Part shown: positions 3,776 to 34,402 of the stretch, in pieces
Layout: every line of letters starts with the position of its first letter
Numbering within the stretch: the first letter of the stretch is position 1
Origin: Alphaproteobacteria bacterium
GTDB lineage: Bacteria; Pseudomonadota; Alphaproteobacteria; SHVV01
Direction: 5' to 3'
Length of the DNA stretch: 64,000 nucleotides
Assembly: GCA_965261735.1 (NCBI GenBank)
Contig: OZ253470.1
Span: forward strand, 544,001 to 608,000
Translations under genes and position numbers: made by a program
The notes under the pieces: model-generated
The model's database searches: none
What the model saw: the letters and a program-made list of their open reading frames with translations, nothing else
Told to the model about the DNA's origin: nothing

Positions 3776-5694
3776 GTTGCGGTAGGAATGCGTATTGCTG
3801 CGCACCCCCCGCGCAGATCCGGACGTGGTCGTTGAACCATCCGGCTCCTACCTCGGGTGATTGACGGCAAACCGCTGGTCCGGCCATGGGTGGCGGATGG
3901 AGGCGCGTGACCACAGGATTTCGGTTATGCGCTCCAGTCGCTTCCAACTGAATCGGGCTCGCTGGGACCGCCGGCGTAGCGCCCGCATCCACAGGCGTTG
4001 CAGCCTGCGGTGGAACGCACGGATGAACCGGCCCGACCCCGGGACGGCAAAGTAGTTGAGCCAGCCTTCGCAGACCCGCCCGAGCCACTTTCCGACCTCC
4101 CAGATGTCGTGATGCCAGCGCTTGCGAAGCACCTCATCGATGCGCGCCAGGGTCCTGTTGACCCGTTTGGCGACCGGTTTGCGACCAAGCCGAAAGCGTC
4201 CTCTCCGGGTCGTCGTGCAGTAGTGCGTGAAGCCCAGGAAGTCGAAAGTCTCCGGCTTGCCCACCCCGCGCTGGCGACGGTTCTTCACCGCGAACCGGCC
4301 AAACTCCACGAGGCGGGTCTTGTCCTGGTGGAGGCTGAGACCGAACCGGGCCAGCCTCTCCCGAACGTCGCGGAGATACCGCTCCGCATCCCGCTTGTGT
4401 TGGAACCCGACAACGATATCGTCGGCGTAACGGACGATGATCGCTTCGCCATCCGGGGCGTTCGGGCGCCATTTCTTGTCGAACCACAGGTCGAGTACGT
4501 AGTGCAGGAACACGTTCGCCAAGACGGGGGAAACTACTGCCCCCTGCGGCGTGCCCATGCCCGCGTCTGTCCATGATCCACCGTCCATGACGCCAGCGTT
4601 CAGCCATTTCCGGATCAGGCGGATGACCCGTCTGTCGCCGATGCGGTGCTCAAGGAACGTGATCAACCAATCCCTCGGGATTGTGTCGAAGTACGCCCGT
4701 AGATCCGCGTCGGCTATCCAGCTGACCTTGCGCCGTTCTATCCCGAAGGCCAGGGCATCGAGCGCATCGTGCGCGCCCCGCCCCGGTCGGAACCCGTAGC
4801 TGAAGCCAAGAAACTCCACCTCGTAGATCGGTGTCAGGATCACATCCACAACCGCTTTCTGGACGATCTTGTCCTCCAGCGCCGCGATCCCGAGCGGTCG
4901 TGTTCCGCCGTCCGGCTTGGGTATCTCTACCCGCCGAACCGGCGGCGCCCGGTACGCTCCCCCGCTGTGCAGACGCCGGTGCAGGTCGAGCAAGCGCTCA
5001 TCCAGACCTTCGCCATACATATCCCACGTGATGCCGTCGACACCCGCCGCAGCGTCCCGCTTTAGTGCGTGGAACGCCCGGTGCAGCGCATCCGGCGTGA
5101 TGTGGTGGAAGAGCGCGGTGAGATGTTCCTTCGGGTCTCTCTCCGCAGCTTTCCGTATCCGGGCCGCCGCCTGTGGCACGCTTGCCCGACACTGAGTTCG
5201 GCGCGTGCTTTGGCAATCCGAATTCCCCTTGGTTGAGGCCCTTTCCTCCGGCGACTCCGCAGAAGCTCGCGCTCCCTTGTTCGCCGCCCTCACAGGTCGT
5301 ATGGCCTCATCCGACTTCTTCAAACCGTTCATCATAGGCTTCGGTTTTCTCCATTCCCTACGCGGCCCCTTTACGACATCCGGGGCAGTTTGAAGACCTC
5401 CCAGGGTCCCGACAGAAGGCGTGCGAACGTGCATGGGTTCTCTGACACCGCGGGGCTCGCCGACATCTCACCAAAACGATGCCTGCGATGTTGCCTTCGA
5501 CCGATCTGAAAGCCTCGGCACCCCGGACCATCGCTTTTTCGATGCTCAATAGCCCTGCCCATCCGTACCGCTACCGACGCTTCGCCTGCCCCCTCGCGGG
5601 AGCCGACGCACGGCTCGCGGAGAAACGTGGTTCGGTTACTCCTTCGTTTCGGGGGACTTGCACCCCCTACCTTCTGCCAGTTCGCCTGGCGCAC
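3776..5694 (-). mobile_element. Inner group II intron (class E-like) encoding an RT
   Basis: 5' GTGCG at 5694; DV GAGCCGGATG…CACGTCCGGATC directly after the RT stop; 3' end …CCTACCGCAAC at 3776. Confidence 0.9.
3848..5335 (-). CDS. ltrA: Group II intron reverse transcriptase/maturase, no endonuclease domain (start uncertain)
   Basis: AAGVDG, RRVEIPK…RPLGI, GTPQG, RYADD, FDFLGF, X-domain GWLNYF. Confidence 0.95.
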   Translation of the reverse strand: MMNGLKKSDEAIRPVRAANKGARASAESPEERASTKGNSDCQSTRRTQCRASVPQAAARIRKAAERDPKEHLTALFHHITPDALHRAFHALKRDAAAGVDGITWDMYGEGLDERLLDLHRRLHSGGAYRAPPVRRVEIPKPDGGTRPLGIAALEDKIVQKAVVDVILTPIYEVEFLGFSYGFRPGRGAHDALDALAFGIERRKVSWIADADLRAYFDTIPRDWLITFLEHRIGDRRVIRLIRKWLNAGVMDGGSWTDAGMGTPQGAVVSPVLANVFLHYVLDLWFDKKWRPNAPDGEAIIVRYADDIVVGFQHKRDAERYLRDVRERLARFGLSLHQDKTRLVEFGRFAVKNRRQRGVGKPETFDFLGFTHYCTTTRRGRFRLGRKPVAKRVNRTLARIDEVLRKRWHHDIWEVGKWLGRVCEGWLNYFAVPGSGRFIRAFHRRLQRLWMRALRRRSQRARFSWKRLERITEILWSRASIRHPWPDQRFAVNHPR

Positions 5695-8445: not shown

Positions 8446-10470
8446 ATGATTCGCCTCCCCGTCCTAACCGAAATCAAGGTCGAGCACTACGGCCTTTTTC
8501 CAGGTAACCCAAGAGGTTCCGGAATCACTTGGCAATTTCACTCTGGCCTTAGCGTCATCGCAGGAATAAATGGCCTTGGAAAAACCACACTGCTCACCAT
8601 GATTCTGCGCTCGTTTACGGGGCCTTACGACCTTACAGGTGACGGCAACCCTCAAAACCTCACCGTTGTCTTACCAAGACACCCAGTCTCTCTTAGGCAA
8701 GACTATATACGTTTCTTCGAACGACGCGTGGCTGACGGTGCAGAAAGCGCGAGCGTTTCACTTTCCGCCACATTCGAAGACACAACAATCACAATCCTGC
8801 GCCGTTTGAATGACCTATTTCTCGAGAACTTTTCCATTAATGACACGCCAATCCCACTTCCCCACGCATCCGCAAAACGCGAAGACATATTCCAATCGGA
8901 GATTACTGAGCTTATGGGGTTTAGCAGTTTTGTCGATGTACTACTCGTCCTACATCACGTAATTCTATTTCATGAAAATCGTCCTGGCGCACTATGGGAT
9001 CCAAACGCTCAACGCCAATTACTGAGAGCTTTGTGTCTTGATGGTGAAGACGCCTCACGCATGGTTGAGCTTGAGCGCAAACTTTTAAGTGCAGACAGCA
9101 GAGCCAGAAACATTCGCGCCAATATAACTTCCACTGAGCGAAAATGGCGAAAGGCTTTGCGACTCGAGGCAGGCTCCGAGGGTGTGCTTGCCGAACTAGA
9201 GGCAGAGCAAGCGGTTGTCGACGCAGAATTGTTAGAAGCCGACCGACTCCGCGAAAATCTGGAACAACTTGACGAGAGTCGAAAGGCAGCGAGGCTTGCC
9301 CACGAACGGGCCAAGGTCGAGCGCGAACAGGCATCCGGCGCCATTGAGCGTTTGAAATATACGGCTCTCCTCTCTCGCTTCCCCACCATGGAGGACACAA
9401 CTCGTTTGATATTGTCAAGAATCCTGACAGATGGTCACTGTATAGCCTGTAATGCAGCTGCCAACACCAAGCGACTGGAACTTGAACGCCAGATTGAAAG
9501 CGGTTGCTGCCCAATTTGTGGCGCTGATCCTCAAGACCAGGACAACGTCATTGGGCCCCACGAACTTGACCAAGCCCGCCTTGACCGAGAACGGCAGCGC
9601 GTCACACAGGCGCGAGAAGAAGAAGAAACGCAATACCGTCACATGACGAATTTCTCGGCAAGCTATGACAAGACCTTACAAGAACTCATTTCCATCCGTG
9701 AAAGAACTGAAGAGAGAAAGAGAAAAAATCAGAGACTTCGTTCACAACTACCCGATTCCGTCACTAGTAAAGACTACGAGAACGCGTTGAAAACCCTGCG
9801 TAGCGAGCATCGTGAATCGCTGGAAATACGAGCGACGCACCTACAGGATCTTCGTGAAATCCTAACGGACAGCGCCGACGTCATTACATCCAAATCTATC
9901 GAGTTAACCCAAGTCTTTGCGACACTTATCGACTCCCTATTGGTTGAAAAGGTTCGGCTAGTACCCATTAGTGCTGAGCCCCGGTACATGCAGGCGCCGG
10001 GTGTTGCCCGCGATCGATTGCAGGTTCCGGCGTACGCGGCGGAAATGACCGCAGCAGATCGACCCGGTTTCATCCGACGAGAGAGGCCAAATGCAGTTTC
10101 AGAGTCCCAAAGAGAGCTAATAGATCTGGCCTTCCGTCTGGCTCTGATTCAGGTATTTGGTAGCTCATGTACATTTGTAATGGAGACACCCGAAGCTAGT
10201 CTCGATGGATTGGCAATGGAGCGCGTCGGCCTGGCGTTACATGAATTCGCTAACAAGAACGCCAACCGACTAATTGTGACGAGCAATCTCGCCAATACGG
10301 GAATAATCAACTCGCTTTTTGGCGGCCCCGCAAGCAACGATGAAATGACGGAGCGCCGGGAACGCATACTGAACCTATTGGAGGTTGCGGAGCCCAATCA
10401 GGCGCTTCTAGACGACAGAGAAAGATACGATCTTTTGCTTGAGCAAGCGATCTCTGGAGTTCTAGAATGA
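8446..10470 (+). CDS. SMC/Rad50-like coiled-coil ABC ATPase
   Basis: Walker A GINGLGKT, coiled coils, central CIAC…CPICG, signature VSESQ, Walker B-like FVMETPEASLD. ATG 8446 follows GAGG. Confidence 0.88.
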   Translation: MIRLPVLTEIKVEHYGLFPGNPRGSGITWQFHSGLSVIAGINGLGKTTLLTMILRSFTGPYDLTGDGNPQNLTVVLPRHPVSLRQDYIRFFERRVADGAESASVSLSATFEDTTITILRRLNDLFLENFSINDTPIPLPHASAKREDIFQSEITELMGFSSFVDVLLVLHHVILFHENRPGALWDPNAQRQLLRALCLDGEDASRMVELERKLLSADSRARNIRANITSTERKWRKALRLEAGSEGVLAELEAEQAVVDAELLEADRLRENLEQLDESRKAARLAHERAKVEREQASGAIERLKYTALLSRFPTMEDTTRLILSRILTDGHCIACNAAANTKRLELERQIESGCCPICGADPQDQDNVIGPHELDQARLDRERQRVTQAREEEETQYRHMTNFSASYDKTLQELISIRERTEERKRKNQRLRSQLPDSVTSKDYENALKTLRSEHRESLEIRATHLQDLREILTDSADVITSKSIELTQVFATLIDSLLVEKVRLVPISAEPRYMQAPGVARDRLQVPAYAAEMTAADRPGFIRRERPNAVSESQRELIDLAFRLALIQVFGSSCTFVMETPEASLDGLAMERVGLALHEFANKNANRLIVTSNLANTGIINSLFGGPASNDEMTERRERILNLLEVAEPNQALLDDRERYDLLLEQAISGVLE

Positions 10471-10740
10471 GTGCTCCTTCACGCCCGCCGGAACAGCTCA
10501 ACCGACTTGTTGCTAGAATACGACGACAATGTCGTGTGCTTTCCCTGCTCGACGCCGCGGAGCGCATTGGAATCGCCCCTTTGTCTTCACCCAGGCTTCA
10601 CGCCTTCGCATACCTAGCCGATGTCCTTAGCCCCGTATGGGGGCTAATACCCTTTGACGGCAAGATCTACAAGTCGACCGGGGGACCACATTATCCGGAT
10701 CTGCAACATGAGCTGGATAGACTTGTCGTACTGGGTCTAG

Positions 10741-12387
10741 GAGCGTGCGCCGCAGAAAGGTCCGCGCGGCAAAGTTGATAGCGGACGGGTTGTGGGTGGA
10801 TTTGCGCAGGGGGAAGTATGATCCGATACGCCAGTTGCGTGTGGGAACTCCCGATGCCGACCACGTTTCGTGCCTACCAGCCGGACCAACCCTTGCTTTT
10901 GCCGCCGGACTTGCAGGAGTGGGTTTCCCCAGGGCACCTGGCTCATCACGTCAGCGATGTGGTCGATGCACTGGACTTGACGGCGTTCTATGCGCCCTAC
11001 GAGGGGGACGGTCGACGCAACGCCCCCTACGAGCCGTCGATGATGGTCAAGGTGCTGATCTATGCCTACGCGACGGGCACATTCTCCTCGCGCGCGGTGG
11101 CGAGGAAGCTGGAGGAGGATGTAGCGTTTAGGATGCTCGCGGCGGGCAACTTCCCGCAACATCGCACGGTATGTGAGTTCCGACGCCGACATCTGGCGGA
11201 GTTCAGCGAGCTGTTTGTGGGGGTGGTGCAGGTGGCGCGCGAGATGGGACTGGCGCGGTTCGGCAAGCTCTCGGTCGACGGGACGAAGGTGCGAGCGAAC
11301 GCGAGCAAGCGCAAGGCGATGAGCTATGAGCGGATGGGCAAAGAGGCGGCTCGCTTGCAGGCGGAGATCGAGGCGCTGCTGACGACGGCGGGGATGGTGG
11401 ACGCCGAAGAAGACGAGCGTTGGGGCGAGGATTTCCGGGGCGACGAGTTGCCCGAGGAGTTGCAACGCAGGGAGAAGCGCCTGGCGGCGATCCAGGCAGC
11501 CAAAGCGCGTTTGGAGGCGGCGCAACGCGGGCGCGACGATGAGCGCGGGCGCGAGCCGGGGCAGGACCGCAATCCCCGGGGCGGGCGGCCTTACAAGCGG
11601 GCCTACGGCGAGCCCGAGCCGAAGGCGCAGAGCAATTTCACCGATCCCGAGAGCCAGATCATGAAGACCAGCAGCGAGGGGTTCCAGCAGTGCTACAACG
11701 CGCAGATGGCGGTCGATGGGGAGCACCAGATCATCGTCGCGACTCAGGTGGGGCCACAGGCCAGCGACCAGGGTCAGCTGGTGGGGATGCTCGACGAGAT
11801 CAACGAGACGTTTGGGGTCGAGCCTGCGGTGGTACTGGCCGATGCGGGCTACTGCAACGAGCCGGATCTGTTGGAGCTGGAAGATCGCGGCATCGACGCG
11901 CACGTAGCGCTGGGGCGTGAAGGCAAGTCCCAGGTGGCGGTCGACCCGGCCCGGCTCCCTGCCACGCACCGCATGGGTGAGAAACTGGCGAGCCCCGCGG
12001 GCAAAGCCCGGTACGCGCAACGCAAGTGGCTCTCGGAGGCGCCGAACGGGTGGATCAAGGAGGTGCTCGGATTCCGACGATTCAGCCTGCGAGGCTTGGC
12101 GAAGGTGCGCGGCGAGTGGGACCTCGTGTGCTTGGCGTTGAACATCAAGCGGATGGGGACGGTGGCCACGTGCTGAGGCAGGTGCTGGCCTGCCAACGCA
12201 CTTGATCCGGGGCGCGCAGTGCCCATCGACCGCGTATGAAACGCGAATCTCTTCCCTTCCGGCCTTCCGGTCTGGGATTTCCATCCCAGAGTCGGGCGGG
12301 CCAGATATCCACACTCGGGCCAAAATCCCACCTCTCCGGCGGCCGCGCGCCAATCGCCCAACATCAAAACTTCTACGGCGCACGCTC
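10741..12387 (+). mobile_element. IS1182-family insertion sequence, 1647 bp
   Basis: TIR GAGCGTGCGCCGYAGAA; TSD CTAG at 10737-10740 and 12388-12391. Confidence 0.93.
10854..12176 (+). CDS. IS1182 transposase
   Basis: Q-LLLPP, G-FSSR, VDGTKVRANAS, NFTDPES, YNAQ, ADAGY, GFRRFSLRG. Confidence 0.93.
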   Translation: MPTTFRAYQPDQPLLLPPDLQEWVSPGHLAHHVSDVVDALDLTAFYAPYEGDGRRNAPYEPSMMVKVLIYAYATGTFSSRAVARKLEEDVAFRMLAAGNFPQHRTVCEFRRRHLAEFSELFVGVVQVAREMGLARFGKLSVDGTKVRANASKRKAMSYERMGKEAARLQAEIEALLTTAGMVDAEEDERWGEDFRGDELPEELQRREKRLAAIQAAKARLEAAQRGRDDERGREPGQDRNPRGGRPYKRAYGEPEPKAQSNFTDPESQIMKTSSEGFQQCYNAQMAVDGEHQIIVATQVGPQASDQGQLVGMLDEINETFGVEPAVVLADAGYCNEPDLLELEDRGIDAHVALGREGKSQVAVDPARLPATHRMGEKLASPAGKARYAQRKWLSEAPNGWIKEVLGFRRFSLRGLAKVRGEWDLVCLALNIKRMGTVATC

Positions 12388-12817
12388 CTAGTTCAAGTAA
12401 ATGCGCTTAGCTATGAGCCGTCGGGCGACGGGGGGGCGCGTATTTCGGGATTCTACGGTCTTAACTTCTCCTCAGACCATTTGGATTCAATATTGGAGGC
12501 CCTAGGAGCACGCGATCCTCATGCGGCATTCAATCCTGATGATACGCATATTCACGAATTCTTGGCAGAGCTAGCAGGTGCGTTAGCTACATTGCCGGAC
12601 GACGAAATTGAGACTGCTGCTGGTGCCGACGTCACTTACCGAAAGGAGACAGCACTGAACAATGTGGTGGACTTCGCCGAGTGGGTGGACGATCAGAAGC
12701 AAGCGAACGCAAGTTGGCGCGCCGCTGAACGTTTCAGGGCGTTCCTGCCCAAGGCGGCTTCAATGCTCCCGGGAGAAAAGCTCTATTTGTACGCGGCCTA
12801 CCTTGCACGGGTGATCG

Positions 12818-13909
12818 ATGCAAACTGAAATTCCCGCCTCCGTCCCGGAAGTTGAAGACCATGAACTTGCCGCAGTCGCTAGTCTGTTCCCAGAATTGCC
12901 GAATCTACGGGCAGAACTAGCAGATCGCTTCGCACAAGCAGTACGTGGTCTTGTTGAAACGAGAGCGCAAAATGGTTGGCCCAGCGAAGGTGATTCAACC
13001 GAAGCTGTGTTTTTGATGGTCGATCACCCACGTCAAATAGGTGAAATATTCGGCGCCACTCCATTCACGGACCTTAGAGCAAAGCACGAACCAATATTTG
13101 GGCGGTTATTCTTTACAAACCGGGATGCCTCCGCCGGACGTCAAATGCCCATGCCAACTAGTTCAAACGAAATTCTAGAGTGGTTGGATGACCGCGACTT
13201 GGGAAAGATCCCAATAGTTACGGTTTACCGAAACACAATGCAGATGCTTACTCGGAGAAAAGGAACAAACGATTCAGCTAGAAGCGACCGCATTCGCGAT
13301 GAGGAACCATCCGCTACGGTAGAGGAGCTGCAACAAGCACTTGAGCATTTCCATGTCACTTGCTTGCTCACACCCACGTGTTGTCCTGACGGTGTTTGGA
13401 AACCCGAGCACGCGCATCAATACATCCCTGGGCCAAGACCAGAAAAGAGTATTCAGAGCGACCTAACCGTGGCGTTAAATTTCTGGTTTCGTGGGATTGT
13501 TAAGGCAGAGTACGAAGACACAACAAACATTGGACGTATCGATATTCGATTGTTGAAAAAGACGAACGGGGAAAGCCTACTCGGCTACTGGGCTATTTTG
13601 GAACTGAAGGTCATTCGCTCTTACGCTAGCACGCATACTTCGAGTAAGCCATCGGTCGTTGCACCGAAATCCAATGTCGACGCAATTATAAAGGGTGTAC
13701 GGCAAGCGCGAGCGTACCAAACGAATCGAGAAACAGATATAGGGTTGCTTGAGATTTATGACTTAAGAAGGGAAAAGGCGCTTCAGGTCCTTGAACACTT
13801 AGATGTGCTATCCGTCATTCATGAAGCGACGCCAAAACCAGAAATTCATCTATGGGAAGTGTTTGGTAGTTCTGAGGACGCCCGAAACGCTGGTTACTCA
13901 GGCATTTAG
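12818..13909 (+). CDS. Putative PD-(D/E)xK restriction-endonuclease-fold protein
   Basis: C-terminal EKSIQ…GRIDIRL…ILELK…GVRQARAY pattern. Confidence 0.65.
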   Translation: MQTEIPASVPEVEDHELAAVASLFPELPNLRAELADRFAQAVRGLVETRAQNGWPSEGDSTEAVFLMVDHPRQIGEIFGATPFTDLRAKHEPIFGRLFFTNRDASAGRQMPMPTSSNEILEWLDDRDLGKIPIVTVYRNTMQMLTRRKGTNDSARSDRIRDEEPSATVEELQQALEHFHVTCLLTPTCCPDGVWKPEHAHQYIPGPRPEKSIQSDLTVALNFWFRGIVKAEYEDTTNIGRIDIRLLKKTNGESLLGYWAILELKVIRSYASTHTSSKPSVVAPKSNVDAIIKGVRQARAYQTNRETDIGLLEIYDLRREKALQVLEHLDVLSVIHEATPKPEIHLWEVFGSSEDARNAGYSGI

Positions 13910-15219
13910 CGTCTCTCAAGTACCACAAGTGTCTCTTCTAGGTCATTTCGGCCACCTTGTTGTGGTGAAGACCGCATGGAGCGACAGGGTTCAAGTACTA
14001 TAACATCATAGCCTATGGACCGGCAGATCTCCGTCAATATTGTAGCCACTGGAACCTCTATTCCCGCATACCTACTATCTCCAACAATCATATATATACG
14101 TCCTCGAGTGCGAAGTTGAATAGCCAGTTTAGATAACACTGCTACTAGGTCTTCGAAGTACGCTCCAATCATTTCGGGTATGTGGCGATTCCACAAGTCC
14201 TCTCTCACTTCGCAGAGACATTTAATAGTGGAACTAAGCGTCCGGCTGCTCAAATCATCAGTAGCAAACTTACGAAAGACTTGAACGTGACTACGAAGTG
14301 TAGAATGACGCAGTTGGGCATTATCTTCAGTGTTGCTAAGGTAACCTAGTGCCCAGAGTTCTACGTTGTAAACATCAGTATAGTCAAATGAGTTTGGGTA
14401 AGGTGGCGAAAACACCGCAAGGTCGCAAGGACCAATCATATATGAAAGGAGTCTCGCGTCTCCTCGCAGAACTCTATATTCGAGACATTGACGTGATGCA
14501 AATCGACGGAGGTCATGTAGGGCGCAAAGTACTCGACTCCGAAACAACTCATCTACTAGTTCTGGTGGCGTCTCTCGCTTCGTCCATCCTCGTTTGTATC
14601 TGCGTCCCTTTCCACTGATGTTAACATTGCTTACCGGAACGACTACGGACGCCAGCAAGACCCGAAATAATCTGCGGCAAGCAATATCCTGAATGGCTTC
14701 TATTGCTGTCCGATAAATGATTATGCGACGCGCGATATCACTTGAGAAAATATATCGCCCATTAAGCCCTGGCTCAACAAACGTGACTGGCGCCCCAACG
14801 AAAACAGGTCTTACTGGTCCATCTTCTCTCGCCACACGTTCGATTACACGTGCGAACTCAAAAATAGCTGTATCGAAGTCAACGAGAGAAATCTTTGACT
14901 CTATGAGATCTGCAAGGAATGGGTTAACTTCTATAGTCGTGGGAGGAATGCCCAAGAACTGACATGCAAGTGCTGTCGTTCCGGATCCTCCGAACGGATC
15001 GGCAATATGTTCTACTTTGCCAGGCGTTTCGAAGAGAGCTCGCTCCACAAGCTCCGGTGCAAATGCCTCCTTGAACGGCCTCCAAGTCTGAAATGGTAGT
15101 GGCTCCATTCCGGCAGTGGAGCCGAACGCAGGTATAGTTCTACCGCCGGTCCAGTCACTGAACTGAACGTACAAGGCTTCCGTCTCAAGACTCGCTGGTA
15201 TTTTCTGTTTGTGTGCCAT
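13906..15219 (-). CDS. Amino-DNA methyltransferase (probably m4C)
   Basis: DPFGGSGTT (SAM motif) precedes FSPPY (catalytic motif); VGDS motif. Confidence 0.88.
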   Translation of the reverse strand: MAHKQKIPASLETEALYVQFSDWTGGRTIPAFGSTAGMEPLPFQTWRPFKEAFAPELVERALFETPGKVEHIADPFGGSGTTALACQFLGIPPTTIEVNPFLADLIESKISLVDFDTAIFEFARVIERVAREDGPVRPVFVGAPVTFVEPGLNGRYIFSSDIARRIIIYRTAIEAIQDIACRRLFRVLLASVVVPVSNVNISGKGRRYKRGWTKRETPPELVDELFRSRVLCALHDLRRFASRQCLEYRVLRGDARLLSYMIGPCDLAVFSPPYPNSFDYTDVYNVELWALGYLSNTEDNAQLRHSTLRSHVQVFRKFATDDLSSRTLSSTIKCLCEVREDLWNRHIPEMIGAYFEDLVAVLSKLAIQLRTRGRIYMIVGDSRYAGIEVPVATILTEICRSIGYDVIVLEPCRSMRSSPQQGGRNDLEETLVVLERR

Positions 15220-15239: not shown

Positions 15240-15644
15240 CTATGTGGTTATTGCGTGTAAGTCTAAGTCAAGACTGCTCGGCCTTCCATCAACTAAGCGC
15301 ACGACGATTCGGTTTCCCTCGGGAAGGAAACGGCGCATCATCTTGATATAAAACGTCTTGTCCCACGGGTGGATCTTCATTTTACAATTGCAACGGAGTG
15401 CGAGCACGCCGACGTTGCTCTCCTCGGCTGTGATGTATTTCAGTGCCCCCGGATCGTCGAACTGGGTCTTGCCCGTGTCGCTCGTCAAAGGGTGGACGAT
15501 CTTGATGCTGCCAATGTCGTCGATCCCGAACCAGCCCTCGGTACAGGTCAGGTTGGAGGACTGGAACGATCCCGCTTCAAAACATCCAGTGGGATCGATG
15601 GTGGCGCGTCCCATCCGATGCGGCAGATACGTCGAATTAGGCAT
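15240..15644 (-). pseudogene. Decayed N-terminal fragment of a larger gene (resembles DUF3604 proteins)
   Basis: EAGSFQS…GIDDIGSIKIVH…PWDKTFYIK, recognised from memory only; ends abruptly before the MTase. Confidence 0.4.
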
Positions 15645-15893
15645 ATCCGGTTTCCCCGACGAGCAAGTCTCCGGTCTCCCGGAAATCGTTTCACAGTCAT
15701 GCACTACCTTAGCACCCGCGGGACCCCCGGCGAGCCGCGGCGGTGCGCGTCTGCGTTTTCGCCACGGCGCATGGCCCACATCCCCTGAACCTGCCGCTCT
15801 CCCTCGAGAGGCCTAGCCCCGCGGCGTTCGGTCGAGGCGCGCGTCCCCGAGCGAGGCCGGCGCGCCGCTCTTGCACCACACGCCATCCGGAGG

Positions 15894-16190
15894 ATGAACA
15901 TCTCAGAACCGCACCGCCGCGCCTTTGAGGCTCTCACGAGTCGCGAACACCACAATTTCGCGCTCCTCCATTTCGTGGACAAATGTCCCGCAGCGGCGAC
16001 CATCGCCGTCAATGGCTACCCGCCGGAGGACGGAGACAGCGAGAATGAATATAGGGTGACTCCGCTGTGCGTTTCAGTCACCGATGGCATTGTGCTGACC
16101 GCCCATGATGGGTGGGAGGCATCAGCGGCGGTTCGCTGCTCCGCGGCACCTGCATTCAAGCCCAGCACCGTCCCCTCCGATACACCCTGA
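15894..16190 (+). CDS. Hypothetical mobile-element protein, possibly degenerate
   Basis: GGAGG RBS; first gene of the co-oriented block. Confidence 0.5.
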   Translation: MNISEPHRRAFEALTSREHHNFALLHFVDKCPAAATIAVNGYPPEDGDSENEYRVTPLCVSVTDGIVLTAHDGWEASAAVRCSAAPAFKPSTVPSDTP

Positions 16191-16441
16191 ACCCGTCGTC
16201 ACCGGCGCGGCGACATACCTTCGCGTTGCCCGCCGGTACCTACCCCGCCCGACTTGCCGGTGCCGGCGACGTTCCCGTCACCACCGCGGAAAACGCCCCA
16301 CCGCGGTCTTGCCGCCACCGCCATGCCGCTCGGACCGGTTGCCCCGCCACCGCCGAGAGGGGAGCGCCGCTCCGGTCCCGACGAAGTTCGGGCGCCCGGA
16401 GGGTGTCCGCACCGCCTCCCCGCCATTCCGGAGTCCTGTCC

Positions 16442-17467
16442 ATGACCCAACCCGCAACCATTTCCGCGGACTACACGCTCCGCCCGAGCGACCTCGCCAC
16501 GACCCTCACGCTCCTCGTCGAGGCCCGCCAGCCGGCCATGGTCTGGGGGCCGCCCGGCTCGGCTAAATCGATGATCGCCCAGCAGGTCGCGGCAGACGGT
16601 GGCCGTGAGTATGTCGACGTCCGGGCGCTCCTGCTCGACCCCGTGGACCTGCGCGGCATCCCCTGGCGCGACGCCGCCGACCGCACCCGCTGGGCGCCGC
16701 CGGTGTTCCTGCCGCCGACCGACGACGCCGGCCTCTGGCTCATCAACCTCGAAGAGCTGCCTTCCTGTGTACCGATGGTACAGGCGGCGCTTTACCAGCT
16801 CGCCCTCGAACGCAAGGTCGGCGAGTACGAGCTCCCCGAGGGCGCGTCGCTCATCGCCTGCGGCAACCGCGAGGGCGATCGTGGCGTGGTCCACCGCATG
16901 CCGACCCCGCTCGCCTCGCGCTTCGTCCACCTCGAGATCCGGGTCGACGCCGAGGACTGGCTGGCCTGGGGCGCGGCCAACGGAATCGCCGCAGAGGTGC
17001 TGTTCTTCATCCAGCTCGAGCCGACGCTCCTGCACCAATTCGACCCGCAGTCGAAGGAGAAGGCTTTTCCGTGCCCCCGGACTTGGCATTTCACCAGCAA
17101 CATCGTGCACCGCCGCAACGGCCTCGACCCGGCGGTCGAGCGCGCGCTGTTCCGGGGCACCATCGGCGAGGCCGCGGCGGTCGAGTTCGCCGCCTTCCTC
17201 AAGGTCTGGCGTGAGCTGCCCCATCCCCGCGCCGTCATCAACGACCCCGAGAACGCCGACATCCCGGAGAACGCGAGTGCGCTGATGGCGCTCTGCGGGT
17301 CGCTCTACCGCCTCGCCAAGGACGTCAACTTCGACGCCATCGTGACCTATTCGACGCGGCTCCGGCGCGAGGTCGGCGAGTTCCTCGTCGGCTCGTGCGT
17401 GCGCCGCGAGCCGGCGTTGCAGCGCTCGCCGGCCTTCATCCGCTGGGCCGCCGCCAGGACCCAGTGA
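16442..17467 (+). CDS. MoxR-like AAA+ ATPase
   Basis: WGPPGSAKS, DLRGIP, LEEL, CGNR, LASRF, CPRTW. Confidence 0.88.
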   Translation: MTQPATISADYTLRPSDLATTLTLLVEARQPAMVWGPPGSAKSMIAQQVAADGGREYVDVRALLLDPVDLRGIPWRDAADRTRWAPPVFLPPTDDAGLWLINLEELPSCVPMVQAALYQLALERKVGEYELPEGASLIACGNREGDRGVVHRMPTPLASRFVHLEIRVDAEDWLAWGAANGIAAEVLFFIQLEPTLLHQFDPQSKEKAFPCPRTWHFTSNIVHRRNGLDPAVERALFRGTIGEAAAVEFAAFLKVWRELPHPRAVINDPENADIPENASALMALCGSLYRLAKDVNFDAIVTYSTRLRREVGEFLVGSCVRREPALQRSPAFIRWAAARTQ

Positions 17468-17613
17468 AGGAAGCACCCAAGACCTTGCGCATCACCCATT
17501 GCCCCGCCGGAGTCGCGCCGTCGCGCGAATACGCGGTGCGGGCACCCAGCCTCGACGCCGCCCGGCGAAAGCTCGCCGACACCCTGAACGTTCCCCGGTG
17601 GACCGTCCGTTAG
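17464..17613 (+). CDS. Small hypothetical protein (49 aa)
   Basis: GTGA overlap with the ATPase stop; fills the gap to the next gene. Confidence 0.35.
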   Translation: MKEAPKTLRITHCPAGVAPSREYAVRAPSLDAARRKLADTLNVPRWTVR

Positions 17614-17630
17614 CCCGACAGGAGAGACCC

Positions 17631-18530
17631 ATGAACCTTACCGACGACGCCATGCAGGTGTCCTTGCGCATCACCGCCTGGTCCGGCCGGCTCTACGACC
17701 GCCAGGCGAGCAACCACGTCGCCGTCCACCACGACGCCGCGGCCAGCGCCGGGCGCTACAACAAGTGCCTGCTGCCCAAGGCCGCCTTCGCCGCGCTCAC
17801 CGCGACCGTGAGTGCATGCAGGACCGCGCACTATGAAAACACGGTTCCCTGGGACGACCAGGGCTCGCGCCTCCTCACCGTCGCCAACTACGAGCACTAC
17901 ACCGAGCTGATGAACGGGTTCCGCGAGCGCATGGTGCGCGAGCGCGCCCGCTTCATCGAGGACTACGACGTCAACGTCGACCAGGCCCGGCTCGACCTGG
18001 GGAAGCTCTTCCGCATCGACGACTATCCGTCCAAGGAGGCGCTTCAGGACAAGTTCTCGATCCGCTACCGCATCACCCCGGTCCAGGACGCCGAGCAGTT
18101 CATGGCCAAGCTCGCGACCGACGACGTGGACCGCGTCAAGCGCGACATCGAGCACCAGATCGAGGAACGCCTCCACGATGCCGTGGGCGACCTCTACCGC
18201 CGCTTCGGCGAGGCGGTCGAGCGGGTCTCGGAGCGGTTGCAGGAGGACGACAACGGCAAACCGCTCGTGTTCCGCGATTCGATGATCTCGAACATCAGGG
18301 ACCTCGTCGATGTGGTCCCGCGCCTCAACATCTTCGGCGACGACGAGCTCGCGCGCCTTTGCGAGCAGGTGAAGGAGAAGATCGCGAGCATCGAGCCGGA
18401 TTCGCTGAGACCCTCGAAGACCTTCGACCCGGTGGCCCGCGCGCGGGTGAAGCATGACGCCGACGACCTGATGGAGAAGTTCGCGGGCTACTTCGTGACG
18501 CCCGTCGAGGCCGCGCGGGAGGCCGCGTGA
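17631..18530 (+). CDS. DUF3150-like helical protein
   Basis: AGGAGA RBS; W-G…PW…G-RLL…DYP pattern; sits between MoxR and vWA genes. Confidence 0.65.
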   Translation: MNLTDDAMQVSLRITAWSGRLYDRQASNHVAVHHDAAASAGRYNKCLLPKAAFAALTATVSACRTAHYENTVPWDDQGSRLLTVANYEHYTELMNGFRERMVRERARFIEDYDVNVDQARLDLGKLFRIDDYPSKEALQDKFSIRYRITPVQDAEQFMAKLATDDVDRVKRDIEHQIEERLHDAVGDLYRRFGEAVERVSERLQEDDNGKPLVFRDSMISNIRDLVDVVPRLNIFGDDELARLCEQVKEKIASIEPDSLRPSKTFDPVARARVKHDADDLMEKFAGYFVTPVEAAREAA

Positions 18531-19876
18531 TGGCCACCCGCGTGCAGATGGAGTCCGCGCAGCGCACCAGCGACTGCGTGACCGAGCTCCTGCGCAAGCA
18601 GCCCTTCTTCGGGAGCCTGGCGCTCAGGCTCCCGCTCCGCGCCGATCCGAGCCGGGAGACGCTCGCGAGCGACGGGCACGAGATCCGCTACTCGCCCAAG
18701 TGGGTGGCCGACACCGACGCGCATGTCATCGAGACCGCGATGGCGCGCGTCGTAATGGCCTGCGCCCTGAAGCACCACACGCGCCGGGGCGAGCGCGACC
18801 CCGAGCGCTGGCAGCTCGCCTCGCAGCTCGTCACCCACGCGCTGCTGCGCGATTCCGGCTTCACCCTGCCGCCCGACGCCGAGGCGTGGGACGGGGTGAG
18901 TGTCGAGCAGGCCTACGAGCGCCTCCCGGAACCACAGGAGGACGATTCCGGCGGCGACAGCGGTTCGCCTTCCGTTGGTGGCGACATGGGTGCCGGCGCG
19001 GCCGCCGCCTCCGGTGGAGGTGACGAAGGCGCGGCCGACAGCCCTTCCGATTCGTCCGGCGAAGGCGACGGCGATACGCAGGACGGCTCGGGCGAGGGCG
19101 GCGACTCCGATGCGCCGGCGAGCCACGATCCTTCCGGCACCGGCGAGATCATGGACGCGGGCGCCCGCGGCGACGGCAATGCCGGGGACGGCGAGGCCCC
19201 GGTGGACGTCACCGCCGAGGAGCAGACATGGGACGAGGCCATGCACCAGGCCATGAACCTCGCCAGGGCCGAGGGGAAGCTGCCGGGCGGGGTCGAGGAG
19301 ACGGTGCGAAACGCCCATGCCAGCACCCTCGATTGGCGGACCCTCCTGCGCCGCCACATGACCGACGCCGCGCGCCGCGACTATAGCTGGAGCTTCCCGA
19401 ACCGGCGCTTCATCGACGGCGGGCTCTATCTCCCCTCCATACGCTCGGAGGGCATCGACGCGATCGCCGTCATCATCGACACCTCGGGCTCGCTGCCGGC
19501 CCAGACTCTCGCGGACTTCTGGGCCGAGGTGCGCGAGGTCGCCACCGAGATCCAGCCCGAGAGCGTCCACATCCTCCAGGTCGACGCCGCTCTTCAGGAC
19601 GCCGCCGAGTACGCCGCCTACGATCTGCCCGACGAGATCGTCATCAAGGGCCGGGGCGGCACCGACTTCCGGCCGGGCTTCGCCTGGCTCGACGAACAGG
19701 GCATCCAGCCCAGCGTGTGCCTCTATCTCACCGACATGCTGTGTTCCAGCTACCCCGACGCCGAACCTGCCTTTCCGGTGCTCTGGGTGAACTACTCGGA
19801 GCCCCCCGGCGACTGGAACCGCGAGCCCTGGGGCGAGCGCATCGACATCGCCCCCGACCGGAGGGCCTCGCCGTGA
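18527..19876 (+). CDS. DUF2201-type peptidase-like + vWA protein
   Basis: PFFGSLA N-terminus, acidic linker, MIDAS DTSGS, GRGGTDF, YLTD. HExxH is missing. Confidence 0.85.
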   Translation: MMATRVQMESAQRTSDCVTELLRKQPFFGSLALRLPLRADPSRETLASDGHEIRYSPKWVADTDAHVIETAMARVVMACALKHHTRRGERDPERWQLASQLVTHALLRDSGFTLPPDAEAWDGVSVEQAYERLPEPQEDDSGGDSGSPSVGGDMGAGAAAASGGGDEGAADSPSDSSGEGDGDTQDGSGEGGDSDAPASHDPSGTGEIMDAGARGDGNAGDGEAPVDVTAEEQTWDEAMHQAMNLARAEGKLPGGVEETVRNAHASTLDWRTLLRRHMTDAARRDYSWSFPNRRFIDGGLYLPSIRSEGIDAIAVIIDTSGSLPAQTLADFWAEVREVATEIQPESVHILQVDAALQDAAEYAAYDLPDEIVIKGRGGTDFRPGFAWLDEQGIQPSVCLYLTDMLCSSYPDAEPAFPVLWVNYSEPPGDWNREPWGERIDIAPDRRASP

Positions 19877-22830: not shown

Positions 22831-22911
22831 CCGTCCGCCATGGCAAGCGCCCCGTCCCGAACCCCTCCGGGCGGGGCGCTTCCTTTTCCGCATTCATCAT
22901 GGAGAGCGCAC

Positions 22912-24666
22912 ATGAACGACACCGCGACCATCCGTGCCCGCATTCACGACAGCGCCATCAGGCGCGTCACGAGGACGTTCGCCGCCACCCTCGCGGATAT
23001 CTTCACCGAGACCTTGCAGAACAGCCGCCGGGCCGGCGCCACGCGGGTCCGCGTCGCCGTCACCGGCCCGGCCGATACCGGCCCCCTGACCGTCACCGTG
23101 ACCGACGACGGCGCCGGCATCGCCGATCCCGCCGTCCTGCTGTCGTTCGGCGAGAACGGCTGGAGCGAGGACCTGGTGCGCCGCGAGGATGCCGCCGGCA
23201 TGGGCATGCTGAGCCTCGCGCGCCGCGGCTGCACGGTCTCCTCCCGACCGCGCAGCACCGATGGTTCGGCCGCGCCCGGCTGCCGCGTCGAGCTTGCGCC
23301 GGAGCATTTCCTCGGCGAGGCCGCGGCCGAGGTTCACCCGGACGATGGCGCGCCCTGGCCGCACGGCACCGCCGTCACGTTCCAGGCCACCGAGTCCGAG
23401 AACGCCACCCTCATCCGCGGGGCGATCGGCACCGCCGCATGGCACTATCCGCTGCCGGTCGTCTTCGAGAACGTCCCGACCACGCCGGCCGGCGGCGAGG
23501 AGTTGGAACGCCGCGCCTTCCTCGACGGCGCGCTCCATGCCGAGCGCTGGCCCGGTCTCGTTTTCGGCGTGTACAAGGACCGCTGGAACGGCTTCGGCCT
23601 GAACGACCCCGACGTCAACTTCCACGGCCTCGCCGTCTCGGTCCGCCTGCCGAGCGTCGAGACGGTGGCGGGCGCGCGCTGGTCGGTCGCCGCCGACATC
23701 GTGGACTGTCCCGAGCTGGAGCTCGTGCTGCCCGCCCGAAAGGAAGCCGTCGAGACCCCGTTCCTCGACGAGATGCGCGAGGCCGCACGCCTTGCCGTCT
23801 ACCGCGCCATGGCCGCCGACCCGGACCCGCGCCCTTCCTTCGCAGACCGGAAACGAGCGCACGAGGCCGACATCGACATCGCCCCACCGCCCGCCGAGCT
23901 GCGGCCCTGGCGCCCCGGCCTCGCCGACGTCGACGATTGGCGCGAGCCGCCGAAGCGCCAGCCGGTGGGCCCCGACGCGCTCCTCATGGCGTGCGACCCC
24001 GAACCGCCCGAGGCGCAGGCGTTCTGGCGGGCCGCCGAGCGCAACGGCGTCGCCGGCCGGCTGTTCGAGCCCGACCGCCGCCTGGAGGGCTACGCCTGGT
24101 ACGACGCGATCGCGCGCGTCGCCGCCATCCACATCGAGATCACGGCCGATGGCAGGACCTGCGCACTCGACGCGTACGCCCCGGCCGGCGGCATCCACAG
24201 GCGCGAGGAACCCGTGCAGCAGCGTCCCGCGGCGATCCGCATCGGCCTCGCCGTCACGCCGCACGAGGGACCCCGCCGCATCCTCGACCTCGACACCGAC
24301 GTCGCCTTCGCGGGCGAAGCCTGGTGCTGGGCGGGCGACGCCCTGCCGCTGGTCACCGCGGACAGCGACATCGAACCCTGGCAGCTCGCGCAACTCGTGC
24401 GTGTCGGGTTCTTTTCCGCCAGCGACGATGCCGACGCGGATTCGTGGGAGACCCAGCGGACCGCCTTCGAGCAGGACGCGCTCCACGCAGCGACGAAGCT
24501 ACTGGTCTCGGACGACGAGGCGCGACGCACCACGATCGCGGATGCCGTCACCCGGGAGCTGCTCTGGCTCATCCCCCACGACCGGGGCGCCGACATCTCC
24601 GTGCGCGACCGCAAGGTGACGGTGACCCTCGGCGAGCCCGTTGCAGAGGCCGTCGTCGGCGGCTGA
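22912..24666 (+). CDS. GHKL/HATPase_c-domain protein
   Basis: ETLQNSRRAGA, DDGAGI, AGMG, GT motifs. Confidence 0.82.
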   Translation: MNDTATIRARIHDSAIRRVTRTFAATLADIFTETLQNSRRAGATRVRVAVTGPADTGPLTVTVTDDGAGIADPAVLLSFGENGWSEDLVRREDAAGMGMLSLARRGCTVSSRPRSTDGSAAPGCRVELAPEHFLGEAAAEVHPDDGAPWPHGTAVTFQATESENATLIRGAIGTAAWHYPLPVVFENVPTTPAGGEELERRAFLDGALHAERWPGLVFGVYKDRWNGFGLNDPDVNFHGLAVSVRLPSVETVAGARWSVAADIVDCPELELVLPARKEAVETPFLDEMREAARLAVYRAMAADPDPRPSFADRKRAHEADIDIAPPPAELRPWRPGLADVDDWREPPKRQPVGPDALLMACDPEPPEAQAFWRAAERNGVAGRLFEPDRRLEGYAWYDAIARVAAIHIEITADGRTCALDAYAPAGGIHRREEPVQQRPAAIRIGLAVTPHEGPRRILDLDTDVAFAGEAWCWAGDALPLVTADSDIEPWQLAQLVRVGFFSASDDADADSWETQRTAFEQDALHAATKLLVSDDEARRTTIADAVTRELLWLIPHDRGADISVRDRKVTVTLGEPVAEAVVGG

Positions 24667-33694: not shown

Positions 33695-34402
33695 ATGCCA
33701 ACCGATACCCCGCTTGCCCCCGCCGTCTGCTCCGAGACCGCCGCACCCTATGCGGCCTGCGCCGGAGCGCCGCCGCCGTCCGCCGAAACGCTGCTCACGC
33801 GCATCGAACGCGCGGGACCCGCCGCGCTCGACGACCACGAGCTCCTCAGGCTCGTCGGCATCCACATCGACGCCGCGACCCTCGCCGCCGCGGGCGGCCT
33901 GCGCGAGCTGCTCGACGATCCGGACGACATGCTGCGCCTGTTCCTCCTGCCTGCCGAGGACCGCGCGCGCGTGCGTGCCGTCCTTGAGCTGCACGCCCGA
34001 TGGTTGGAAGCGCGGCTTCGCCGGGACGGCGCTCTCACCTCGCCGGACCTGACCCGGCGCTACCTCGAATCCCGCCTTCACGGGCGGCGCAACGAGGTCT
34101 TCGTCGCGGTCTTCCTCGACTCCCACCACCGGCCCATCGCCTACGAGGAAATCTTCAATGGAACGGTGGACGGCGCCACCGTCCATCCGCGCGTCGTGGT
34201 GCGCAGGGCGCTGATGCACAACGCCGCCGCCCTCGTGGTCGCACACGGACATCCGTCGGGCGTTGCCGAGCCAAGTGTCGCCGACCGCGCCATCACCAAG
34301 CGGCTCGCCGAAGCACTCGCGCTCGTCGACGTGCGCCTCATCGACCACTTCGTCGTCGGCGACGGGGAATCCGTCTCCTTCGCCGAAAGAGGACTTCTCT
34401 GA
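33695..34402 (+). CDS. radC: RadC/JAB-domain protein
   Basis: EVF-AVFLD, GTVDGATVHPR, AHGHPSG--EPS-AD, LIDHFVVG. Confidence 0.9.
   Translation: MPTDTPLAPAVCSETAAPYAACAGAPPPSAETLLTRIERAGPAALDDHELLRLVGIHIDAATLAAAGGLRELLDDPDDMLRLFLLPAEDRARVRAVLELHARWLEARLRRDGALTSPDLTRRYLESRLHGRRNEVFVAVFLDSHHRPIAYEEIFNGTVDGATVHPRVVVRRALMHNAAALVVAHGHPSGVAEPSVADRAITKRLAEALALVDVRLIDHFVVGDGESVSFAERGLL

Follow-up and report, generated by a model that had tools for sequence, protein, structure and literature searches.

A four-gene cassette joining a Rad50/SMC-like ATPase and a nuclease to a DNA methyltransferase as a candidate restriction-modification-type defence system

What kind of system is encoded where a Rad50/SMC-like ATPase and a nuclease share a cassette with a DNA methyltransferase? 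The question is raised by a 64,000-nucleotide stretch of contig OZ253470.1 of an alphaproteobacterium (assembly GCA_965261735.1), referred to here in its full length as the window, in which a cassette of four genes extends across positions 8446-15219 (Table 1). The known restriction enzymes that depend on ATP or GTP have SF2 helicase-type motors (types I, III and ISP) or an AAA+ motor (McrBC), and the SMC-type defence systems Wadjet and Lamassu are not known to carry a modification enzyme. An initial annotation of this DNA had proposed that the ATPase, an adaptor protein, the nuclease and the methyltransferase form an undescribed defence system. We consider it probable that the cassette is a horizontally acquired defence system of the restriction-modification type with an SMC-type restriction side. 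This reading is based on a strict, deep-rooted association between a Lamassu-like triplet of genes and one methyltransferase family. A convergent layout as in restriction-modification systems, a nuclease that diverges faster, neighbours of the defence-island kind and the occurrence of two triplets per methyltransferase point in the same direction.

Conservation and layout of the cassette

Related loci were retrieved by ATPase or middle-protein searches, and the pooled set comprised 61 of them: 20 genome loci, from a scan of one genome per species, and 41 loci on metagenome contigs, from a scan with the middle-protein profile. The ATPase was present in all 48 loci with room for the full gene and the methyltransferase, on the opposite strand, in all 42 with room for it, in agreement with the association suggested by the initial annotation. 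By tblastn the nuclease was found in 44 of 46 loci; hhalign added a 45th (L056, E 3.8e-15), and the nuclease of L051 was undetected. ATPase, middle and nuclease genes follow one another in this order in every one of the 20 genome loci and also on the metagenome contigs, an arrangement rightly described at the outset as unlike that of Lamassu, and the complete genome loci have an identical order and orientation of the four genes (19/19). The synteny of the cassette is far beyond chance. Clustering of the flanking open reading frames (ORFs) gave no further gene common to all loci, leaving only the four genes conserved.

The middle gene, which starts at 10467, overlaps the ATPase gene by 4 bp, the middle and nuclease genes overlap by 11 bp (12818-12828), and the nuclease and methyltransferase genes converge tail to tail with an overlap of 4 bp; these coordinates confirm the earlier description of three overlapping genes meeting a convergent methyltransferase of the SPPY type. 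The GC content of the cassette is 46-52%, compared with 62-74% in the flanks, so that the single lower-GC block noticed previously is indeed there. Among 31 genomes (the window's own, 7 from its family and 23 from its class), the ATPase was found only in the window's own. Low GC content and this confined distribution are signs of horizontal transfer. A scan for promoters and terminators gave nothing usable.

At least 300 homologues of the ATPase were retrieved. Among the 120 listed, identity was 54-100%, most had a length of 673-677 aa, which supports the start chosen for the 674-aa protein, and none bore a name beyond 'hypothetical protein'. In a set of 1.84 billion proteins, the middle-protein family has 308 representative clusters at E <= 0.001, with 235 of them at E <= 1e-10 and 67 at E <= 1e-30, and is rare but widespread: the titles of the genome loci include Alpha- and Gammaproteobacteria, Spirochaetia, Bryobacterales, Edaphobacter, Cytophagales, Myxococcota and Binatia. 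Intact copies occur in cultured isolates (e.g. L010 from Sphingosinicella, L011 from Qipengyuania, L016 from Ancylobacter and L017 from Mesorhizobium), which makes bench tests feasible. The ATPase, nuclease and methyltransferase and the C-terminal half of the middle protein co-vary in their identity to the window (rho 0.82-0.91, 39 loci), which, as related loci are not independent, shows co-inheritance and no more. The nuclease diverges faster than the methyltransferase, with mean identities to the window of 43% and 57%, respectively.

The link to this methyltransferase family is kept in distant variants whose ATPases are 26-38% identical to that of the window. Three of these loci have two divergent triplets beside one methyltransferase, and their layouts, convergent, tandem and divergent, differ (L047:3998-12640; L040:2-8862; L073:900-10815). 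The methyltransferase is in line with the second triplet in L047 and with one triplet in L073, and two tandem triplets are followed by one convergent methyltransferase in L040; L074 has one triplet and one methyltransferase. Among these variants, a Burkholderia stagnalis replicon has its methyltransferase, ATPase, middle and nuclease genes on the same strand and another triplet on the opposite one, and an Azospirillum replicon carries one triplet-like set with a convergent methyltransferase and a nuclease undetected by tblastn. In plasmid records, distant variants were seen on two very large replicons only (2.0 and 3.2 Mb), both of them unannotated there. Viral contigs gave 32 pattern matches and no relative among them, and phage records gave no match.

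A gene for a small XRE-type helix-turn-helix (HTH) protein of ∼107 aa adjoins the methyltransferase gene, and is transcribed away from it, in 10 of the 19 complete genome loci and in several metagenome loci (e.g. L003:15194-15517, L005:15153-15473, L009:15152-15481 and L017:15115-15495). Its product matches Pfam HTH_31 (E 1e-5) and may be a controller protein. As it is found in about half of these loci and is absent from the window, we rejected it as a fifth core part.

The four proteins and the predicted nuclease-middle protein complex

The model of the nuclease (pLDDT 87) predicts two domains. The C-terminal one (residues ∼165-350) has the PD-(D/E)xK fold of restriction endonucleases, as the initial annotation had recognized, and D242 and E262-x-K264 are invariant in 17 nucleases. 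With VIA-align, the best structural matches were CdiA-CT (4g6u, Z 8.6), SfsA (7.8), OkrAI (7.6), BglII (7.5), BstYI (7.5) and BamHI (7.2). Pfam PDDEXK_9 was matched by 13 of the 17 members, under the cut-off; NCBIfam gave no family, PADLOC no hit at E <= 0.01 and a profile search of the PDB nothing meaningful, and neither the nuclease nor the middle-protein model had a Foldseek match in the PDB at E <= 0.001. The N-terminal domain (residues ∼32-160, window 12910-13300) resembles the DisA_N diadenylate-cyclase fold (DisA 7y0d and 3c1y, both Z 6.7, the former over residues 32-157; CdaM, Z 5.7; Foldseek E ∼2e-3), a likeness without sequence support, as Pfam found no DisA_N hit in the nuclease. 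Since Z reaches only 6.7 and this hit is lacking, we do not claim a cyclase activity.

When the nuclease of L001 was modelled together with its middle protein, as had been advised at the start, the pair scored an ipSAE of 0.88, against 0.04 for the best of three controls. Of 80 solved complexes, 58 reach this mark, and of 110 mismatched pairs 2 do; these counts hold only roughly here because custom alignments were used. Contact agreement between runs was at least 91%, and partner pLDDT at least 81. Residues 8-31, 69-76, 101-108 and 231-256 of the nuclease are predicted to contact residues 32-38 and 151-235 of the middle protein; on the nuclease side the interface would include strands beside the catalytic residues and the conserved stretches of the N-terminal domain, YPRQ and NRDASxGR, which fall inside it. 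The model supports binding of the middle protein to the nuclease, with the nuclease N-terminal domain as its predicted docking site.

The middle protein belongs to no Pfam, NCBIfam or PADLOC family: the 16 members examined had no Pfam hit at E <= 1 and no PADLOC hit (0/16), and a PDB profile search gave nothing meaningful. In the model of an intact homologue (pLDDT 78), a winged-helix domain is predicted, followed by helices, in line with the winged-HTH adaptor that had been proposed. Its best VIA-align match is chain D of the DarTG complex 7yk3 (Z 10.6, rmsd 4.0, 150 residues), followed by ORC/Cdc6 winged helices, LmuC chains and the Wadjet-II JetABC chain 9qe0_E (Z 6.3). The LmuC chains 9ny5_C (Z 6.8, 136/171 residues) and 9hqx_d (Z 6.1, 129/164 residues) are tied with many winged-helix proteins.

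According to excerpts of the published work, 7YK3 contains a DarG fragment, and DarG's helical C-terminal domain inhibits the toxin and is homologous to DUF4065 (PMC13621843). Judged by its length, chain D is probably the C-terminal part of DarG. A middle protein predicted to bind a potentially toxic nuclease would in this be like an antitoxin such as DarG/Panacea (DUF4065, PF13274), a likeness without sequence support: none of the 16 members matches PF13274, hhalign against five Panacea proteins gave a probability of 1.9% (E 0.026), and the Panacea profile failed to retrieve 7yk3_D itself. Panacea clusters, which rank among the closest that carry a name (0.85), and an ABC-3C MC2 cluster (0.81) came up in the Atlas as leads only. 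Panacea membership is thus unconfirmed by sequence.

The ATPase contains a Walker A motif (G40-x4-GK46TT), a signature region (S552-E-S-Q-R) and a D-loop (SLD587). Its Walker B region, F-V-M-E580-T-P-E583, is a variant (residues 580-587, window 10183-10206): the usual Asp-Glu pair reads Glu-Thr and a second Glu lies three residues on. The sequence M-E-T-P-E-A-S-L-D is invariant in 18 homologues, and the V of F-V-M-E-T-P-E is not. Because the residue at the usual catalytic Glu position is, as we take it from the alignment with the Rad50 motif, a Thr, hydrolysis of ATP may be slow or regulated. The hook with Cys pairs assigned to this protein by the initial annotation stands: two CxxC pairs, C332/C335 and C355/C358, are located at mid-length between the coiled-coil arms and are invariant in 18 ATPases. 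Matches to Pfam SMC_N (E 7.3e-7) and AAA_23 (E 1.7e-5) are both under the cut-off. The PADLOC models of LmuB match at E 6.7e-7, 2.7e-6 and 7e-6, each with partial coverage of the profile, and there are weaker matches to mad3 (E 6.3e-6), mad8 (E 6.5e-4), AriA, PtuA and PbeC. A profile search of the PDB returned P-loop matches to Rad50 only, the best at E 0.026.

In the methyltransferase, motif I (DPFGGSGTT, residues 74-82) precedes motif IV (SPPY, residues 271-274) by ∼190 residues, which presumably places the enzyme in the alpha class, and the SPPY motif, we assume, corresponds to N4-cytosine modification. DPFGGSGTT and FSPPYPNS are invariant in 16 methyltransferases. The protein matches the PADLOC MTase_II models PDLC03224 (E 3.8e-44) and PDLC03389 (E 1.5e-22) and Pfam N6_N4_Mtase (E 3.3e-6, 27.7 bits against a cut-off of 26.7 bits); NCBIfam has no family for it, and phmmer against the PDB gave one weak match (E 0.009). 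Conservation is uniform along the whole length, with a mean column identity of 65%.

The window copy and its surroundings

Table 1. Features of the cassette in the window.
Feature	Position	Strand	Details
Rad50/SMC-like ABC ATPase	8446-10470	+	674 aa
Middle-component gene, 5' part	10467-10740	+	Codons 1-91 plus one base; ends at the insertion sequence
IS1182-family element	10741-12387	+	1647 bp; transposase 10818-12176; CTAG on both sides
Middle-component gene, 3' part	12391-12828	+	145 codons
Two-domain PD-(D/E)xK nuclease	12818-13909	+	363 aa
DNA methyltransferase	13906-15219	-	437 aa

The copy of the machine in the window is most likely dead, because an IS1182-family insertion sequence (IS) splits its middle gene. 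The transposase belongs to the IS1182 family (NCBIfam NF033551, E 3.6e-109) and matches Pfam DDE_Tnp_1, DUF772 and DDE_Tnp_1_6; the element has imperfect terminal inverted repeats and is flanked by CTAG at 10737-10740 and 12388-12391. It is present in 17 copies in the 5.03-Mb genome, every one listed at 100% identity, which indicates a recent hit by an active element and points to a recent transposition burst in this genome. Without the IS and one CTAG, the middle gene reads 236 codons, the length predicted by the initial annotation. Its two halves align to residues 1-91 and 92-236 of intact homologues, which have 233-240 aa, and they do so back to back in all 20 genome loci (e.g. L001 12294/12295), confirming both the break point and the length. 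As the IS cuts after codon 91, most of the predicted interface with the nuclease is separated from the N-terminal part of the middle protein.

Mobile elements also interrupt ATPase, middle or nuclease genes twice in L018, where one insertion carries an IS1595 transposase, and in L019, where it is an IS3-type transposase. The methyltransferase gene is stop-free in the window and in the 19 genome loci that reach it. In L004, the nuclease gene (L004:12719-13803) aligns in two frames with a switch near codon 35, a sign of a frameshift or else of faulty assembly of this metagenome-assembled genome.

To describe the neighbours of the cassette in related loci, 10 ORFs were hand-picked from 6 loci among 110 long ORFs, with a preference for loci of moderate GC content. 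Known defence genes directly adjoin the cassette in 3 of these 6 loci. KwaB (E 1e-122) is found in the flank of L002, a type III methyltransferase (E 6e-241) and an NB-ARC protein in that of L003, and an AbiLi/AriA-like ATPase (E 2e-104) in that of L012; a ResIII-domain protein in the L003 flank has only a weak REase_III match (E 2.6e-8). The flank of L019 contains an integrase and that of L005 a ParB-like protein.

In the window itself, the region upstream of the cassette is dense in mobile elements (ORFs 84-770, 767-1666, 1742-2455 and 3848-5434), with two IS1595-type transposase ORFs, a P63C-domain gene and a group II intron reverse transcriptase/maturase. Downstream lie a DUF2201 gene (metallopeptidase-like and VWA-like) and a protein with a weak HATPase_c match, at 18527-19876 and 22840-24666; ORFs at 15240-18530, between the cassette and the DUF2201 gene, have no Pfam family. 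The sole tRNA gene in the window, a tRNA-Leu (GAG) at 33788-33877, is ∼18 kb from the cassette and is therefore no obvious integration site for it.

Relation to known systems and possible mode of action

Lamassu (LmuA-LmuC-LmuB; ABC-3C; DdmABC) is like the cassette in that it combines an SMC/Rad50-like ATPase with a small HTH-type middle protein and a nuclease effector. However, the LmuA gene usually comes first in Lamassu, and LmuA has its effector domain at the N-terminus and docks with its C-terminal part, whereas in the cassette the order is ATPase, middle, nuclease, with a C-terminal nuclease domain and an N-terminal docking domain. Short LmuB proteins, as described in excerpts of the source, have a Walker B motif hhhhD[Q/S/T/E] and zero, one or two CxxC motifs (PMC12663957), and the cassette ATPase is like them in its two CxxC pairs and its non-Glu second Walker B residue; the same excerpts place the LmuC gene directly before that of LmuB, unlike the order found here. 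The methyltransferase is always part of the cassette, whereas a full-text search of three Lamassu structure papers, within the text covered there, returned no mention of one. PADLOC gave neither an LmuA nor an LmuC hit for the cassette proteins. By its gene order, the domain order of its effector and its methyltransferase, the cassette falls outside Lamassu.

The nearest printed precedent found for the coupling of an SMC-like ATPase with a methylase is the group of CxC-ABC ATPase/DndE systems (PbeABCD), in which, according to excerpts of the original description, an SMC-like ABC ATPase is accompanied by a small DNA-binding partner and a nuclease, and in some cases by cytosine methylases (PMC10853773). 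In these excerpts the partner is DndE, which has two ribbon-helix-helix domains, the nuclease is an HKD-SF2 helicase fusion and there is a disordered small protein, whereas the middle protein of the cassette is a predicted winged-helix protein and its nuclease is of the PD-(D/E)xK type. The PADLOC model of PbeC matches only the last ∼65 residues (E 1.7e-4); PADLOC gave no PbeA, PbeB or PbeD hits and no match to the middle protein or the nuclease. MADS, which has eight genes, is likewise a methylation-linked defence with ABC-type ATPases, and its mad3 and mad8 models match the cassette ATPase weakly. It differs from the cassette, which has four genes, a coiled-coil ATPase and a PD-(D/E)xK nuclease; in excerpts of its description, MAD3-MAD4 is an ATPase-nuclease module of the OLD-family type (PMC13662399). 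Since the cassette is without the defining partners of PbeABCD and MADS, membership in either was also rejected.

With type II restriction-modification systems the cassette shares convergent, overlapping genes for a PD-(D/E)xK nuclease and an AdoMet-dependent methyltransferase, an optional small HTH gene and a nuclease that diverges faster than the methyltransferase. Unlike them, it has two additional constant genes, the product of one of which is predicted to bind the nuclease, and a methyltransferase with little variation at the expected place of a recognition domain. That the ATPase and middle genes are constant, and that a contact is predicted, argues against a lone endonuclease.

No full match of the cassette to a named system was found with PADLOC, Pfam and NCBIfam, and this part of the initial claim of an undescribed system stands. 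That the system is undescribed is unproven: our search of the full-text literature found no description of this gene set, but the paper on ABC-3C systems (Krishnan 2020) and supplements were outside its scope. The abstract of Krishnan et al. 2020 is said to mention ABC ATPases acting together with restriction-modification systems.

In the restriction-modification reading, we infer defence, protection by methylation and ATP-dependent licensing to work together as follows. The methyltransferase would mark the host's own DNA, and a dimeric Rad50/SMC-like ATPase would bind or scan DNA. The winged-helix middle protein would grip the N-terminal domain of the nuclease, and it also touches the catalytic sheet in the model; the nuclease would cut unmethylated DNA after the ATPase has engaged its target. 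We also put forward, more tentatively, that the cassette could represent a new class of restriction-modification, with a Rad50/SMC-type ATPase complex as engine instead of a helicase, an AAA+ motor or a lone endonuclease. It would be a Lamassu-like 'detect' machine tamed by a cognate methyltransferase, so that foreign DNA is restricted and the cell is not killed, and some genomes would plug two sensor triplets into one mark.

Several points weigh against these proposals. The link of the ATPase to LmuB is weak and partial, with PADLOC matches at ∼1e-6 and Pfam matches under the cut-offs, and it is gene order that suggests its contact with the middle protein and the nuclease. The score of the complex is the model's own confidence, obtained on custom alignments. 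Typical type II families have variable recognition domains; the methyltransferase, by contrast, is uniform and could serve something other than site-specific self-marking. The flanking ORFs are a non-random sample (10 of 110, hand-picked), and the pattern of insertions, all four of those seen (4/4) falling in 3.8 of the 5.1 kb, is not significant, with a probability of ∼0.3 by chance.

Other explanations were weighed on the same evidence. The cassette might consist of two modules travelling together, a type II nuclease-methyltransferase pair and an ATPase-middle accessory, the latter for instance a guard against a block of restriction, as PrrC beside type Ic systems reacts when a phage blocks restriction. 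A convergent nuclease and methyltransferase with a 4-bp overlap is indeed a common restriction-modification layout, the nuclease domain matches OkrAI, BglII, BstYI and BamHI (Z 7.2-7.6) and 10 of 19 complete genome loci have a C-protein-like HTH gene next to the methyltransferase. We find this unlikely, however, given that the middle protein is predicted to bind the nuclease (0.88 versus 0.04), that its gene overlaps the nuclease gene by 11 bp and that the ATPase-middle pair would have no effector of its own. No nuclease-methyltransferase pair lacking the ATPase was seen (48/48 loci with the ATPase), although searches based on the ATPase and the middle protein could not find such pairs.

Abortive infection of the Lamassu type would mean that the machine responds to sensed DNA ends or replication intermediates by degrading DNA indiscriminately, with, for example, a regulatory or sensing role for the methyltransferase. 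An obligate methyltransferase (42/42) speaks against it, two triplets per methyltransferase fit a protective mark better than an accessory, and the orders of genes and of effector domains are reversed relative to Lamassu, with no LmuA or LmuC hit in PADLOC. Even with the short-LmuB features of the ATPase, the alignment of the middle-protein model to LmuC and the uniformity of the methyltransferase across the family in its favour, we regard this explanation as improbable. It is still less likely, in our view, that the cassette is primarily a selfish addiction module, or one for DNA maintenance or repair in mobile islands, kept because loss of the methyltransferase kills the host. Patchy distribution and low GC content would be expected of such a module, as would neighbouring IS elements, group II intron, integrase and ParB genes, and the insertions strike genes other than the methyltransferase only. 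However, a restriction-modification system can serve addiction and defence alike, known defence genes adjoin half of the sampled loci, and no relative was found on viral contigs or in phage records, plasmid records yielding only the two very large replicons.

If the restriction-modification reading is true, the cassette would join SMC-type defence and modification-based restriction and provide a natural test case for how a host can live safely with an SMC-type sensor. Defence-finding tools would also gain a system so far unannotated, its four proteins being nameless in NCBIfam.

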